Shown here: in pieces, positions 47,021-64,000 of the stretch
Numbering within the stretch: position 1 is the stretch's first letter
Layout: each line of letters starts with the position of its first letter
Source: a virus
Direction: 5' to 3' (one strand)
Length of the DNA stretch: 64,000 nt
IMG/VR virus record: IMGVR_UViG_3300027734_000042
The notes under the pieces: model-generated
Seen by the model: the letters and a program-made list of their open reading frames with translations, nothing else
What the model was told of the DNA's origin: nothing
Database searches by the model: none
Position numbers and translations under genes: made by a program

Positions 47021-47623
47021 TTAATCGTCGAATCCGCCGAATCTTTTTAATATGTTAGCACCTTTACCTAGATCCTCACCCTTTAAGCTAGGCGGTATTT
47101 CAAAGTTTTTAACTATCTCTGGATTCTCTTCCATTTTTCTTCTGACAACGTCTTTGTAATTTTCGTTTCCTAAAAGTTCTTCCTCTGACATAGGAACTCC
47201 TTGCTCTCTTAAGATATACTTAATCAAGAATCCCATTTTGAAAAGATAATCTTCCGGAGTCATACAAGCTCTTCTAAGATCAGTATTTAATCTAGGAAAT
47301 TCTGAAGATTTAGAAGGTCCTACAACCACTCTAATACTTCCGTTGTGCATAATGTTATATTGAGGATATCCCGGTTTAGGTGATTTCATAGAATCATGTT
47401 TAAATGCTATGTTACCTAAACGATCTTTAAAATATCTTTGCTCTTCAGTACCTTGTGTTTCGATACCAATTGGGTTTTCTGCGATCATTTCTGTCCAACC
47501 CATTGCAGTCATATCTTTATAAGCTTCTGATTCTCTAATTGGTTTAAAACTAAGAACTGGACATTTTTTAGTTCTTCTAACCTCTTGTATTTTTTTGAAC
47601 TCTGGATAGTTTTTAATACTCAT
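47021..47623 (-). CDS. late cargo protein with N-terminal and C-terminal tags
   Basis: MSIKNYPEF...KGANILKRFGGFDD; AATATATA upstream. Confidence 0.7.
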   Translation of the reverse strand: MSIKNYPEFKKIQEVRRTKKCPVLSFKPIRESEAYKDMTAMGWTEMIAENPIGIETQGTEEQRYFKDRLGNIAFKHDSMKSPKPGYPQYNIMHNGSIRVVVGPSKSSEFPRLNTDLRRACMTPEDYLFKMGFLIKYILREQGVPMSEEELLGNENYKDVVRRKMEENPEIVKNFEIPPSLKGEDLGKGANILKRFGGFDD

Positions 47624-47834
47624 TTTTCCTTTGTTTTTCTTATATATATTCTTTTTATTCGAGGACTCCGAGAATTTTTCAATAATGGTGAAATTTTTTC
47701 ACTTATTAACAGTATATTTAATGTCCTCTGTAGAAAAACAGCTTATAAACTGTTTTTCTGCTTTCCTATATATAGAAAAAACCGGTTCCTAGGAATCGGT
47801 TTTTTTATTCAAGTTTTTTCTATAATATTGCGAT

Positions 47835-48386
47835 ATGTTAAAAGTACACTTTGAAAATTTTAATCACTTCTTGGAGATAACAAATCCACCCAGTAGTGTA
47901 ACTGATCGTCTAGAGAAGCTTAAGACTCTTAGAGAAAGACCTGACTATCATCCTGAGCCCAATACTTTTGAGCACATACGTATAGTGACTGAGAGATTGA
48001 TGCTAACTAATGACATAGATCTTATATTCGCAGGATGTATGCACGATCTATTTAAGCTAGATACATTAGCAATAAATCCTAAAACCGGATTTCCTACTTG
48101 CCCTGGACACGATACGCAAGTAGCGAGCTTTATACGAAGTAATAAAGAGGTACAGGACTGGATGAACAGATACGAAGCTGATATTGAAACAGTTGCAGAT
48201 CTTTGTAAGGATCATATGAGATTTCATCAATTTGATAGAATGAAAGTATCCAAGCAGGAAGAATTCAAATCAAGACCACATTGGGGTAAATTAATATACC
48301 TAGGTGCTGCAGATAATATGCTGGTTGAATTCGATATAGATAATTTAGAAAAAAGCTGGAAATGGAAAGAAAGAAATACGCTATAA
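47835..48386 (+). CDS. HD-domain phosphohydrolase
   Basis: YHPEPNTFEH, MHDLFK, GHD, DHM, AAD. Confidence 0.75.
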   Translation: MLKVHFENFNHFLEITNPPSSVTDRLEKLKTLRERPDYHPEPNTFEHIRIVTERLMLTNDIDLIFAGCMHDLFKLDTLAINPKTGFPTCPGHDTQVASFIRSNKEVQDWMNRYEADIETVADLCKDHMRFHQFDRMKVSKQEEFKSRPHWGKLIYLGAADNMLVEFDIDNLEKSWKWKERNTL

Positions 48387-49480
48387 GGACACTTAACAAA
48401 TATGTTAACGAGGGAAGGATAGAAAGAAATCCTCACCCGACTCTTCCTATATCCATCTATAATTATTCAAGGGAAACTCAATTTAAGAATGATTGGGACG
48501 AAGTAACATTGTCTATGAGAGGAACAATAATAGACGATAAAGGATATGTTGTTGCCTCTGCTTTCAGTAAGTTTTTTAATTACGAGGAAGTTGCTGATCA
48601 GGCTCCGACTAAAGGAGATTATGTTTATGTGCAAGAAAAGATGGACGGATCCCTAGGTATACTCTTTTATTACCAGGATGAATGGCATCTTGCAACTAAA
48701 GGATCTTTTACTTCAGATCAGGCGAAGAGAGGAATGGAAATACTAAGAAAAAACTATTCTGTTTTTGATCAGGTCTTCTTCAAGGAGGTAACCTATATAG
48801 TTGAAATAATTTATCCGGATAACAGAATTGTAGTTGACTACAAAAATGAAGAGAAAATAGTTTTCCTAAGCACTTCTGTTAATGGGGAAGAACAACACTG
48901 GACAACATCTTTATCATTATTTAAAGGCAGCGGTATAAAAAAATCCGATATAGTTAAATGTGAGCAGCACTTCTCTTTCGGTGAAGATCTTTATAAATCT
49001 TTAAAGGATAAAAACACAAAAAACGAGGAGGGATTTATTCTTAGATTTCAACCTGGTAATTTTAGAATGAAAATAAAATTCGAAGAATATGTTAGATTGC
49101 ATAGGCTTCTTACTAATTTTTCTAATGTTGATATATGGGAAGCATTAAAGGATGGAAGAGATATAAATGTTCTTCTTGAAAGAGTACCTGACGAATTCGA
49201 TGCTTGGGTTAGAAAAACAATAACAGATCTTAGATATCACAAATATGCTATAGAGGAAAGAGCTGGAAAGATTCACTACTATTTCAGATACGGAAAATAC
49301 AGTGATCGTGAGATCGAGCCTACTAAGAAAGAATTTGCACAGCACTTAGAATTCTGCAAAACTGAACCTTCTATAAAGGCTATCTGTTTTTCTATATGGG
49401 ACGGTAAGAACTATGATGATATAGTTTGGAAGATGATCCGGCCTAAATATCAAAAGCCATTCTGGAATAGAGAGGAGTAG
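48362..49480 (+). CDS. T4 Rnl1-like RNA ligase
   Basis: IYNY, KFFN, EKMDGSLG, EGFIL, KIKFEEY. Confidence 0.88.
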   Translation: MERKKYAIRTLNKYVNEGRIERNPHPTLPISIYNYSRETQFKNDWDEVTLSMRGTIIDDKGYVVASAFSKFFNYEEVADQAPTKGDYVYVQEKMDGSLGILFYYQDEWHLATKGSFTSDQAKRGMEILRKNYSVFDQVFFKEVTYIVEIIYPDNRIVVDYKNEEKIVFLSTSVNGEEQHWTTSLSLFKGSGIKKSDIVKCEQHFSFGEDLYKSLKDKNTKNEEGFILRFQPGNFRMKIKFEEYVRLHRLLTNFSNVDIWEALKDGRDINVLLERVPDEFDAWVRKTITDLRYHKYAIEERAGKIHYYFRYGKYSDREIEPTKKEFAQHLEFCKTEPSIKAICFSIWDGKNYDDIVWKMIRPKYQKPFWNREE

Positions 49481-49520
49481 TATTTGTAACTTCTTGGAAT
49501 TCAATGTCTATAATATACGA

Positions 49521-62571: not shown

Positions 62572-62585
62572 GATCTATATATCGA

Positions 62586-63653
62586 TCAAATACCAAATCT
62601 ATTTAGTATACTAGATCCCTTTGTTATAGCTTCAGCTTCTTCCTTGCCAAATTCTTCCTCGAACCTAGCTACAGTTTTAGGATTAGATTTCCTTAAAGAT
62701 TTTAAGAGCTTTCCTAGAGCTAAAGGATTTTGATCTTTGATCTTTCTTAAAGCAAGCAATAATTTATCTACATCTCCTATAACTCCATTTGACGAAATAG
62801 AAATATACACATCTCTAACGGAAACTAAAAGATCTATAGTTGGATTATTAGAATATTCTCTTTTAATTAGATGATCGTATTTTTTATTTATTGTATAAAT
62901 TAGTGCTTTTCTAAAAAAATCATCCAGCTTATCTATTGACGAAGCACCCATGCTAATTAGAACTCTGTTTCTGTTCATCTCTTCCTTAGCTGAATACCCT
63001 TCCTTGTTAGTTAATCTTACATTAAGATTTGTTTCAAATGATATCCCATCTATTCGATCATACAAATTAAAAGGATCGGCATTTATTCTAATATCGGAGT
63101 ATTCATATATTTTACCCCCGTTAAAAAAAACACCATCAAATTCTTTATAAGTGGGAAGTGTATTTAAAACATCATGATCTGTGATCATTGAAGATAATCC
63201 ACTGTTGTTCTTATAATCATTTATAATCTCCTTGGCGTTATTCATTTTGATAACTTTATCCCAATTAGATTTTATCCATCTTTCTAAATCACCCTCGTTT
63301 AATCCCCTCTCCTTTCTTAGCAATATAAATCTAGTAATCGAGTATTTTATAAGCTCTTCCAATGTATTGAAGGCTCCATATCCATAGGTGTTTCCCGAAG
63401 ACTCACTAAGCTGGCACCATTGATTATTATATTTGTATAGTCTAGTACTACCAGCATAAGCACCTTTGATATAAACCCTACCTGTTTTAACAGGTTTAAA
63501 TAGATCTTCGATTGGTAAAGATCTTCCGTTAGCAACTAAAGTCTGTAGGAATTTACCATCCTCACTATTCATAATGTAGTCCATTATTACAGGACCTGCA
63601 GAAGGATCCTCAGATTCATTAAGATAGCTTTTAAATTCTAGTAGATGCTTCAT
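62586..63653 (-). CDS. late cargo protein with N-terminal and C-terminal tags
   Basis: MKHLLEFKSYLNE...KGSSILNRFGI. Confidence 0.7.
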   Translation of the reverse strand: MKHLLEFKSYLNESEDPSAGPVIMDYIMNSEDGKFLQTLVANGRSLPIEDLFKPVKTGRVYIKGAYAGSTRLYKYNNQWCQLSESSGNTYGYGAFNTLEELIKYSITRFILLRKERGLNEGDLERWIKSNWDKVIKMNNAKEIINDYKNNSGLSSMITDHDVLNTLPTYKEFDGVFFNGGKIYEYSDIRINADPFNLYDRIDGISFETNLNVRLTNKEGYSAKEEMNRNRVLISMGASSIDKLDDFFRKALIYTINKKYDHLIKREYSNNPTIDLLVSVRDVYISISSNGVIGDVDKLLLALRKIKDQNPLALGKLLKSLRKSNPKTVARFEEEFGKEEAEAITKGSSILNRFGI

Positions 63654-63664
63654 AAAATGCCAAA

Positions 63665-64000
63665 TTAGAAAATTCCAAGTCTGCCTAGAATTTTAGCACC
63701 TTGCTTGATTCCGTTATCCTCCCAATTTTCAGGACTAGGTAAATAGATAGACATTTGTGGGTACTTGTAAATCATCGCTTCAAACTTATCTTTATAAGAA
63801 GAGGAAGAAGATCCGCCATCAGTATTTAATTCAGTAATGATATCATTTATTTCTTTTTGTGGAATTCCATTCATGCTTCCTATATCTTTAAGGTGAGTAT
63901 TAAAAACATAAACAATCTTAGGTATAAGCCCTTCTACATTTTCGATCGGATAAATGAGATCTGGATTACTTGTTAGGTATCCTTGAACACCCTTCCTCCT
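63665..64000 (-). CDS. 3' part of a cargo protein with C-terminal tag (extends beyond the window)
   Basis: Frame open to base 64000 (RRKGVQGYL...); ends QGAKILGRLGIF. Confidence 0.7.
   Translation of the reverse strand, partial: RRKGVQGYLTSNPDLIYPIENVEGLIPKIVYVFNTHLKDIGSMNGIPQKEINDIITELNTDGGSSSSSYKDKFEAMIYKYPQMSIYLPSPENWEDNGIKQGAKILGRLGIF

Follow-up and report, generated by a model that had tools for sequence, protein, structure and literature searches.

A shared C-terminal peptide on otherwise unrelated proteins of an uncultivated phage group, and its lineage dialects

In eukaryotic viruses, short docking peptides shared by many proteins are familiar; among phages, to our knowledge, they have been described just for a few replication proteins. 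The T4 proteins gp43, gp33, and gp55 carry C-terminal tails that bind the clamp gp45, and T7 gp2.5 and gp4 have acidic C-terminal tails. As a principle, shared docking tails are already known. Here, we describe a 12-residue C-terminal peptide (the tail) that recurs on seven minus-strand open reading frames (ORFs) in a 64,000-nucleotide (nt) stretch of DNA from an uncultivated giant phage (the window), which is a strand-reversed part of the 129,821-bp IMG/VR virus record IMGVR_UViG_3300027734_000042 (CheckV completeness 47%). As in T4 and T7, several unrelated phage proteins bear a short C-terminal tail that, in the reading we favor, would dock on a hub. However, the T4 and T7 tails are found on replication and transcription proteins, while the carriers described here are ORFans and leucine-rich-repeat (LRR) proteins. 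We found no description of the motif in the searchable literature.

Other described systems resemble the tail in part. The membrane-targeting sequence of E. coli MinD is KGFLKRLFGG. In poxvirus ankyrin/PRANC proteins and cellular F-box/LRR proteins, variable protein-binding repeats are each joined to one docking element for a common machine. Our carriers may follow the same plan, as they include a multigene set of variable repeats with one conserved small docking element, but F-box and PRANC are folded domains of ~40 amino acids (aa) that bind eukaryotic Skp1. The analogy is one of logic only, with no relation in sequence or fold. The capsid-targeting sequence of T4 internal proteins, MKTYQEFIAE, is cleaved after Glu by gp21, and encapsulin cargo-loading peptides and the coat-binding C-termini of scaffolding proteins are comparison cases for capsid loading.

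The C-terminal ClpX-binding (XB) peptide of SspB is RGGRPALRVVK (PMC3983244). Like our tail, XB is a short Leu/Arg/hydrophobic peptide at the extreme C-terminus that follows a separate body; XB tethers its substrate-binding body to one machine, as the tail may do. However, XB occurs on one protein family and the tail on at least 15, the sequence and register differ, and the likeness is limited to Leu, Arg, and hydrophobic residues. The C-terminal tail of HslU, EDLSRFIL, docks into HslV and activates it (PMC4106860). This terminal L-S-R-F-hydrophobic peptide, which inserts into pockets of the partner ring, resembles the ...SLLSRFDS and ...ILNRFGI ends of two of our carriers, but the HslU peptide must lie at the very end of the protein, while 1-12 residues follow the Arg in the tails described here.

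The tail and its carriers

All seven tagged ORFs reported in the initial annotation of this DNA are present where it had placed them, and all carry the peptide, which reads K-G-x-x-[IL]-L-x-R-[FL]-[GD] followed by 1 to 8 more residues (7/7 ORFs). Two of the tails quoted there had been cut short: the ORF at 60732-61463 ends in ...KGYGLLRRLGEKRIPIQE and the ORF at 62038-62571 in ...PGYRLLGRLGAFKNK, with ...RLGEKRIPIQE and ...RLGAFKNK as their respective last residues. Coordinates are window positions unless marked as genome or locus positions. The leftmost carrier, family 4 (47021-47623, minus strand, 200 aa), has the tail ...LGKGANILKRFGGFDD, encoded at 47024-47065. Family 8 (50496-51335, minus strand, 279 aa) ends in ...DRGSSLLSRFDS (50499-50531). 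Family 6 (57691-58239, minus strand, 182 aa) combines the N-terminal leader MKNIKSFHLFENS with the tail ...FKGGNLLNRLGDI (57694-57729), while family 7 (60732-61463, minus strand, 243 aa) has no leader and ends in ...DKGYGLLRRLGEKRIPIQE (60735-60788). The remaining three form a run near the right end of the window and all have leaders: family 5 (62038-62571, minus strand, 177 aa; leader MLNRIKSFNQFNKLNEA) with the tail ...APGYRLLGRLGAFKNK (62041-62085), family 3 (62586-63653, minus strand, 355 aa; leader MKHLLEFKSYLNESE) with ...TKGSSILNRFGI (62589-62621), and family 2 (63665-64000, minus strand), which is truncated by the window end and has the tail ...KQGAKILGRLGIF (63668-63703). In the full record, the family 2 protein is 299 aa long and starts with its leader, MKKLITFGEFSRINES. 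None of the seven proteins had a significant Pfam or PHROGs family, and megablast and tblastn searches of 50,697 phage records gave no match.

Four further tagged ORFs lie outside the window, with the tails ...GKGSRLLYRSDD, ...KGSSLLGRSMDI, ...KGGSLLTRVGIYD, and ...KGASLLGRFS. They encode one 145-aa protein and three LRR proteins, which match PF01462/PF12799 and are true paralogues of one another (BLASTP E 1e-17 to 1e-31). A doubtful twelfth tail, on the ORF at 33482-34882 (...AGGLKNLGRITED), was dropped, as it lacks the hydrophobic pattern.

The peptide is strongly confined to C-termini. In a greedy ORF set of the 129,821-bp record, G..[IL]L.R occurred 11 times at 12 or fewer residues from the C-terminus and never internally, while 2000 within-protein shuffles gave a mean of 0.08 C-terminal matches (maximum 3). 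A stricter pattern, [ILVM]L.R[LF][GD], occurred eight times, seven of them C-terminal; the single internal occurrence was in a PhoH-like ORF. When we compared 50 tails, the motif lay at most 12 residues from the end in every one. The core of these tails is K-G-x-[SN]-hydrophobic-L-x-R-hydrophobic-G-x-hydrophobic, with Gly at R-6 and Leu at R-2 nearly invariant. The protein ends 1 to 12 residues after the Arg, and the first 1-6 positions past the Arg usually include an acidic side chain or the terminal carboxylate.

Synonymous codons vary among the tails, with Leu encoded by TTA, TTG, CTT, or CTA, Arg by AGA, AGG, CGA, or CGT, and Gly by GGT, GGC, GGA, or GGG. Since the codons vary synonymously, selection acts on the peptide, and the same diversity rules out a DNA repeat as the origin of the tail. 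In 16 cross-lineage orthologue pairs, the tail core was 65% identical, compared to 36% for the bodies. For example, an orthologue of family 6 at metagenome locus L001 has a body that is only 32% identical, but its end, ...TGANLLNRLG, matches the tail at 8/10 positions. The core of the family 5 tail is the same in L001 and in a second metagenome locus, L004, and K345, G346, I349, N351, and R352 of family 3 are invariant among 12 orthologues. Thus, purifying selection at the peptide level acts on the tail.

The bodies that bear the tail are unrelated. As the initial annotation had held, the seven window proteins have no similarity among their bodies (BLASTP E > 0.4), and they are not full-length paralogues, as the hhalign alignments cover no more than the last 14 to 56 columns; the LRR trio outside the window is the exception. 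N-terminal bodies never aligned in profile-profile comparisons. A preceding helical segment, which had been reported for several carriers, was recovered as a module of ~55 aa in three families (3, 6, and 7), whose C-terminal 50-56 columns are alike in pairwise hhalign comparisons (Prob 78, 40, and 49%); families 7 and 3 have ~54 aa of this module in common (Prob 78%, E 1.7e-5). Most carriers, however, share the tail only, and the profile alignment of the LRR family with family 3 covers just the last 14 residues. Across relatives, body clustering gave at least 15 carrier families.

We modelled two of these families with AlphaFold. In both, the tail is predicted to be a short terminal helix of low confidence, without confident placement on the body. 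Residues 348-355 of the 355-aa family 3 protein, which include a 5-residue helix at 348-352, have pLDDT < 50, as do leader residues 1-11. In the LRR model (pLDDT 82.6), the tail helix at 249-260 scores 53-65, compared to > 90 for the solenoid. A Foldseek search of the PDB with the family 3 model gave no fold match. The nearest folds to the LRR model were the LRR domains of IpaH, SspH1/SspH, and YopM (probability ~1.0, TM up to 0.6, but E > 1e-3), and from the models the LRR bodies appear to resemble the substrate-recognition LRR domains of these effectors. Of the modular peptide on unrelated bodies that had been proposed, the modular part stands: the tail is appended to differing bodies, exposed, and better conserved than the bodies. 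The partner that had been proposed with it is a separate claim, which we take up below.

Selection on the peptide and its terminal position would also be expected if the tail acted in cis or served structure alone, with no partner. It could, for example, cap a helix at the end of the protein and so stabilize it, or serve in the ribosome as a nascent-peptide signal that affects termination or the next gene. By our own reading, the R-hydrophobic-G-hydrophobic stretch resembles a Schellman-type helix cap. However, neither model places the tail with confidence, and the downstream contexts vary from co-directional genes 11-20 nt away to convergent overlapping genes and an 8-nt overlap. Such a feature would also leave unexplained the concerted changes on unrelated proteins that are described in the next section, and we consider it very improbable.

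Lineage dialects and what may read the tail

The relatives of this phage are known from uncultivated IMG/VR records and metagenome contigs, the longest about 250-350 kb, and contain T4-type capsid genes; contigs of ~349 kb are among those that encode tagged proteins. We scanned the whole relatives G001 (248 kb), G014, G015, and G016, together with the more distant G002 and G005 (polymerase identity 70% and 60%, respectively). Tails were found in G001, G014, G015, G016, G017, and G021 and at L001 and L004; the L001 lineage was not found in IMG/VR. There were no tails in G002 and G005, even with a relaxed pattern, and seven more records of the 60-64% tier gave no match to a profile built from lineage A tails (see below).

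Each tail-bearing lineage has its own form of the motif. In lineage A (G000, G001, G021, L001, and L004), it is [IL]-L-x-R-[FL]-G; in lineage B (G014, G016, and G017), M-L-x-R-F-G; and in lineage C (G015), L-L-x-[KN]-F-G. Met at R-3 occurs in 0/11 tails of G001 compared to 10/12 in G014 (Fisher p = 7e-5) and 3/3 in G016. Arg at position 0 is present in 30/30 tails of lineage A and 14/16 of lineage B, but in none of the nine tails of G015, where four have Lys and five have Asn. The switch to Met affects orthologous families 1, 2, 4, 7, and 8, and the loss of Arg affects orthologous families 1, 2, 3, 4, 5, 8, and 12. Thus, the tail of family 4 is MLKRFG in G014 and G016 and MLKNFG in G015, and that of family 2 is MLSRFGLF in G014 and G017, MLRRFGVI in G016, and LLNKFGLFD in G015. 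Orthologues of family 8 end in ...KGTNMLKRFGGFDR in G016 and ...KKGIGLLGNFGI in G015, the G014 orthologue of family 7 ends in ...GKGGSMLRRFGID, and the G015 orthologue of family 5 ends in ...KGFGLLGNFGVFDS. Since codons differ among the tails inside each genome, gene conversion is an unlikely cause of this uniformity, and we set it aside. Instead, the alteration of many genes at the same motif position on the same branch is the pattern expected of one reading site that has itself changed.

We therefore favor a reading in which the tail is a portable docking motif recognized by one specific protein, and we give it an even chance of being right. One reader protein, from the phage or the host, would grip all carriers by the tail, and the carriers would thereby be gathered at one place or machine early in infection. 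Some would be LRR proteins, which have a target-binding fold, made from early host-type promoters. Others would be late proteins that, since they bear a T4-like leader, are probably packed in the head and injected. Here, we infer the protein binding, the time of action, and the partner. The initial annotation had proposed that the tail would dock variable proteins on a common partner after delivery, and the concerted lineage dialects would fit one such partner. If one reader exists, its identification would reveal a host-takeover hub in an abundant, uncultivated freshwater phage group, provide a sequence rule for spotting effectors among ORFans, and supply a small portable tag to direct proteins in Bacteroidota; the dialects would be a built-in specificity control for binding experiments.

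Several points weigh against a single reader. We identified no partner, and the genes unique to the clade are too many to pick one, as 63 ORFs are common to the three lineages and missing from G002 and G005, and 238/335 ORFs of G001 have no homologues in these two tail-less relatives. The dialects are those of three related lineages, such that each switch is one branch of the tree, though many genes are affected. The substitutions of Ile/Leu by Met and of Arg by Lys are conservative, and the latter (AGA to AAA) follows the A+T mutational bias. In addition, the tail is moderately amphipathic, with a mean hydrophobic moment of 0.47 that is near the 0.45 of the MinD peptide KGFLKRLFGG, such that it may bind lipid. 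We ranked the rivals to a docking motif in the order membrane anchor, degron or protease-adaptor handle, capsid loading, enzyme substrate site, and cis-acting or structural feature.

The membrane anchor would be an amphipathic targeting helix of the MinD/FtsA type that lies flat on the inner membrane and concentrates the carriers without a protein reader. Like the MinD sequence, the tail is C-terminal and moderately amphipathic, starts with K-G, has hydrophobic residues at R-3, R-2, R+1, and R+4, an interfacial basic residue, and a Gly near the end, and has a similar hydrophobic moment; its terminal position and low confidence in the models would also fit. A 132-aa ORF of G001 (L022:1333-1731, plus strand) ends in ...SGILNMFGSLFGK, a tail-like amphipathic sequence without the Arg that looks closer to a generic membrane helix. 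However, the predicted helix is short (5 residues for family 3, 12 for the LRR protein), and the moment of the tail is just in the top 13% of internal 11-mers. The register also differs, with a Gly-to-basic spacing of 6 here and 4 in MinD, and the bodies are not ParA/MinD ATPases; the carriers tested had no MinD/ParA-type Pfam hit. Without a partner, the sequence should be able to vary provided that it stays amphipathic, yet Gly at R-6 and Leu at R-2 are near-invariant. Moreover, since Lys and Arg should mix in lipid binding, as should Ile, Leu, and Met, the lineage-wide switches are unexpected, and 5/9 lineage C tails have replaced the basic residue with uncharged Asn. Thus, the MinD-like reading put forward in the initial annotation is weakened by the differing register, the moderate amphipathicity, and the concerted Arg to Lys/Asn and Ile/Leu to Met changes, and we regard a membrane anchor as rather unlikely.

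A second possibility is that the tail is a handle for degradation, either as a degron that sets when early or injected proteins are removed or as a tether, like the XB peptide of SspB, that brings target binders such as the LRR bodies to an AAA+ unfoldase and ClpP, with destruction of host proteins as the outcome. This clade does encode ClpP paralogues. One, at 42674-43240 (plus strand; PF00574, E 1.6e-25), is listed as context and is the candidate executor under this reading, and a second is present in G001, G014, and G015, such that paralogues occur in lineages A, B, and C. The architecture of the carriers, in which a binding domain is followed by a low-confidence link and a C-terminal peptide, is SspB-like, the LRR fold resembles the substrate-recognition domains of IpaH and SspH, and the HslU peptide resembles two of the tails, as described above. 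However, we found no phage unfoldase; both AAA+ proteins belong to the MoxR type, and ClpP-like genes are also present in the tail-less records G003, G004, G007, G013, and G018. Docking on HslV was rejected, as neither the 5 phage records nor the 5 Bacteroidota genomes searched contain PF00227 (10/14 control genomes were positive). Searching all PDB chain sequences with the tail profile yielded only chance rows at E <= 10, with no match to SspB, HslU, or another protein beyond chance, which also speaks against identity with XB or ssrA-type signals. The peptide resemblances are short and unscored. We judge a degradation handle to be unlikely.

A broader form of the docking motif would join these two ideas in an "adaptor toolkit," in which varied target-binding bodies, LRR solenoids and ORFan domains among them, would plug via a co-evolving tail into one executioner machine, for example a Clp-type protease with the phage ClpP. 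Some of these bodies would be made early, and others probably injected from the head. We view this toolkit as improbable. If it were true, many host proteins would be seized, then destroyed or remodelled, at the start of infection, and the system would be a counterpart of F-box and PRANC proteins in viruses of bacteria.

Other partners and origins were examined. The tail profile had 3 weak matches (17-19 bits), which is chance level, in 401 Bacteroidota genomes sampled across the phylum, and at that level the tail does not appear to mimic a host C-terminal motif. In a word-indexed search with the tail profile, the best 8000 candidates contained only metagenome orthologues, with tail-only matches crowded out. 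A T4-style clamp-binding tail is unlikely and was also set aside, as the polymerase tail has a different pattern and no clamp family was detected. The C-terminal fragment of the phage polymerase ends in ...SPNLLLVRALF (...SPNLFMINTLF in G005), in a differing register, and the gp32-like protein ends in SLDDLYNDL. Neither PF09116 nor PF02916, which represent gp45-type clamps, had a match in G000, G001, G014, or G005, and an ORF of 255 aa that lies between the genes for topoisomerase and polymerase had no family hit.

Early and late promoters and the N-terminal leader

The four carriers outside the window lie in a different promoter context from the seven within it. At genome 1-20 kb (locus L007, outside the window), small minus-strand genes are each preceded by TTTTTT-N-TTCTATATTAGC or TATATTTG. 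The TTTTTT...TTCTATATTAGC motif presumably fits the Bacteroidota -33/-7 promoter type. Since this upstream motif is of the Bacteroidota type, it suggests that the block consists of early genes and that the host is probably a member of the Bacteroidota. Three of the four out-of-window carriers have the host-type early motif TTTTTT...TTCTATATTAGC directly upstream, and the fourth lies within the same block. These carriers run counter to the statement in the initial annotation that no core or early gene has the tag.

A second motif, of the GATATATA type, is found 12-30 nt upstream of the tail and structural genes of the virion and of 6/7 tagged window genes, in the latter at 12-27 nt; since it also precedes structural genes, we assign it to the late class. 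Among the carriers, a late-type ATATATA motif lies at -27 in family 4, and GATATATA lies at -15 in family 8 and at -12 in family 6. The ATATATA-type promoter had been noted upstream of five carriers; we find a promoter-like motif of this type upstream of six. As judged by these upstream motifs, the tail occurs on both early and late genes. GATATATA is often just 4 nt before the ATG (62572-62585, 58240-58251, 63654-63664, and many late genes). If it is a -10-like element, the late mRNAs would be leaderless or nearly so.

The N-terminal leader, M-K-x-I-x-x-F-x-x-F-x-N-E, resembles the capsid-targeting sequence of T4 internal proteins, and relatives have genes for a major capsid protein of the gp23 type and for a gp21/S77 prohead protease. 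With these genes present, a T4-like propeptide, as had been proposed, is plausible. However, the T4 sequence is N-terminal and cleaved, while the tail is separate and C-terminal and also occurs without a leader and on early genes. The leader had been ascribed to five of the seven window carriers; we find it clear in four and partial in two. About 22 ORFs start with M-K-x-I-x-x-F-x-x-F-(x)-N-E (6230-63653 and the whole record; for example, 62586-63653 and 57691-58239 on the minus strand and 11796-13313 on the plus strand), some of which encode enzymes, including a MoxR AAA+ protein and a P-loop kinase-like ORF.

The overlap of leader and tail raised the possibility that the tail is itself a capsid- or scaffold-loading signal that binds the inside of a T4-type prohead, alone or with the leader. 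A regular expression for the leader matched 5/11 tagged and 17/141 untagged ORFs (odds ratio 6, p = 0.01), such that the tail is enriched on leader-bearing proteins, as it is on late-promoter genes, and the gp23-type capsid protein and gp21-type protease of the relatives would supply the prohead. In addition, LRR homologues in G005 (147039-149936, locus L121) have a leader, MKHLQSFSLFEARKTS, in place of the tail and share a different C-terminus, ...LKTKLGYVDPWKDGIV. Since these homologues have a leader and no tail, the tail and leader could be alternatives, and the same LRR effector family seems, from its sequences, to have swapped addressing signals between clades. Yet leader without tail and tail without leader both occur. 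While the seven window carriers are in late-promoter contexts, several with a T4-like leader, the four carriers in the early block have none, and three of these four follow a host-type early promoter. Two loading signals on many proteins would be redundant, the 17 leader-bearing ORFs mentioned above have no tail, and the sister clades represented by G002 and G005 share the head genes but not the tail. Capsid loading by the tail thus seems improbable.

Neighboring genes and genome context

Some genes near the carriers were considered as candidate readers of the proposed docking motif. Directly downstream of the family 4 gene, at 46398-47003 (minus strand), is a gene for a protein of 201 aa that has a transmembrane helix at its N-terminus and a GAF-like body. 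Its position next to family 4 is conserved in G000, G001, G014, G015, and G016. The protein has no Pfam hit, but belongs to phage clusters of the protein atlas, one of which is annotated as GAF in 44% of its members. As it is a widespread phage family, it is unlikely to be a dedicated reader, and we list it as context only. DnaJ is also present in the tail-less G005. Three other candidates (ClpP, the early MoxR AAA+ protein, and a protein of the Asp/Asn beta-hydroxylase family) match the distribution of the tail only in part.

The hydroxylase gene (60213-60773, plus strand; PF05118, E 1.9e-10), likewise listed as context only, is convergent with the family 7 gene and overlaps its 3′ end. Among 21 records searched, it was found only in G000, G001, and G014, all of which bear tails. 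The early MoxR AAA+ gene and its vWA partner, which sit among the early tagged genes, were found in the same three records only. These associations would be expected if the tail were a recognition or modification site for one enzyme, with the hydroxylase-family protein or the MoxR/vWA pairs as candidates, and a vWA domain could accommodate the acidic group or carboxylate after the Arg at its metal-ion (MIDAS) site. However, alignment of the tails revealed no conserved Asn or Asp position. Neither the hydroxylase nor the early MoxR gene was found in the tail-bearing G015, G016, G017, and G021, which are incomplete records, and all of the co-occurrence lies inside one clade and so counts as a single event. 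An enzyme site is, in our view, distinctly improbable.

There are two MoxR-type AAA+/vWA pairs, at 10719-13313 (plus strand) and at L007:4996-7602 (minus strand). In the late pair, the MoxR gene is beside a vWA-like DUF2201 protein with a putative metallopeptidase domain, while the early-block pair is CobS/CobT-like.

The window also encodes a gp32-like single-strand-binding protein, a split family-B DNA polymerase, topoisomerase II, a primase, and a UvsW-like helicase, as well as UvdE, an RNA ligase, an HD-domain protein, a full-length DnaJ, ClpP, and the MoxR AAA+ protein beside the vWA-like (DUF2201) protein. The two polymerase genes, for the exonuclease/N-terminal part (17523-18929, plus strand, 468 aa) and the polymerase domain (37125-38294, plus strand, 389 aa), are ~18 kb apart. 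DnaJ (32090-33142, plus strand) is of class A, with a J domain, zinc finger, and C-terminal domains, and is the protein also found in G005. When we used it to search genome contigs for a host, no close relative was found. We found no S21 gene and therefore rejected a place among the Bacteroidota phage clades that encode bS21. The window and the genome record differ at two bases, 50027 and 50039.

The HD-domain protein adjoins a T4 Rnl1-type RNA ligase (47835-49480, plus strand). By analogy with T4, the two may be an RNA-repair pair that acts against anticodon nucleases. Collagen triple-helix repeats (PF01391, E 2e-31) are present in a 716-aa protein whose gene, at 20655-22805 (plus strand), lies behind a late-type motif. 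Just past the right end of the window, at genome 21462-24082 (L008:6462-9082, plus strand), are five tandem paralogues that start with MTREEFI..., end in ...GNIEGIDSKRLLNxMIxKGxFER, and match no Pfam family. All three lineages with tails have these paralogues, while G002 and G005 do not; the genes sit immediately upstream of the late cluster of tagged genes.

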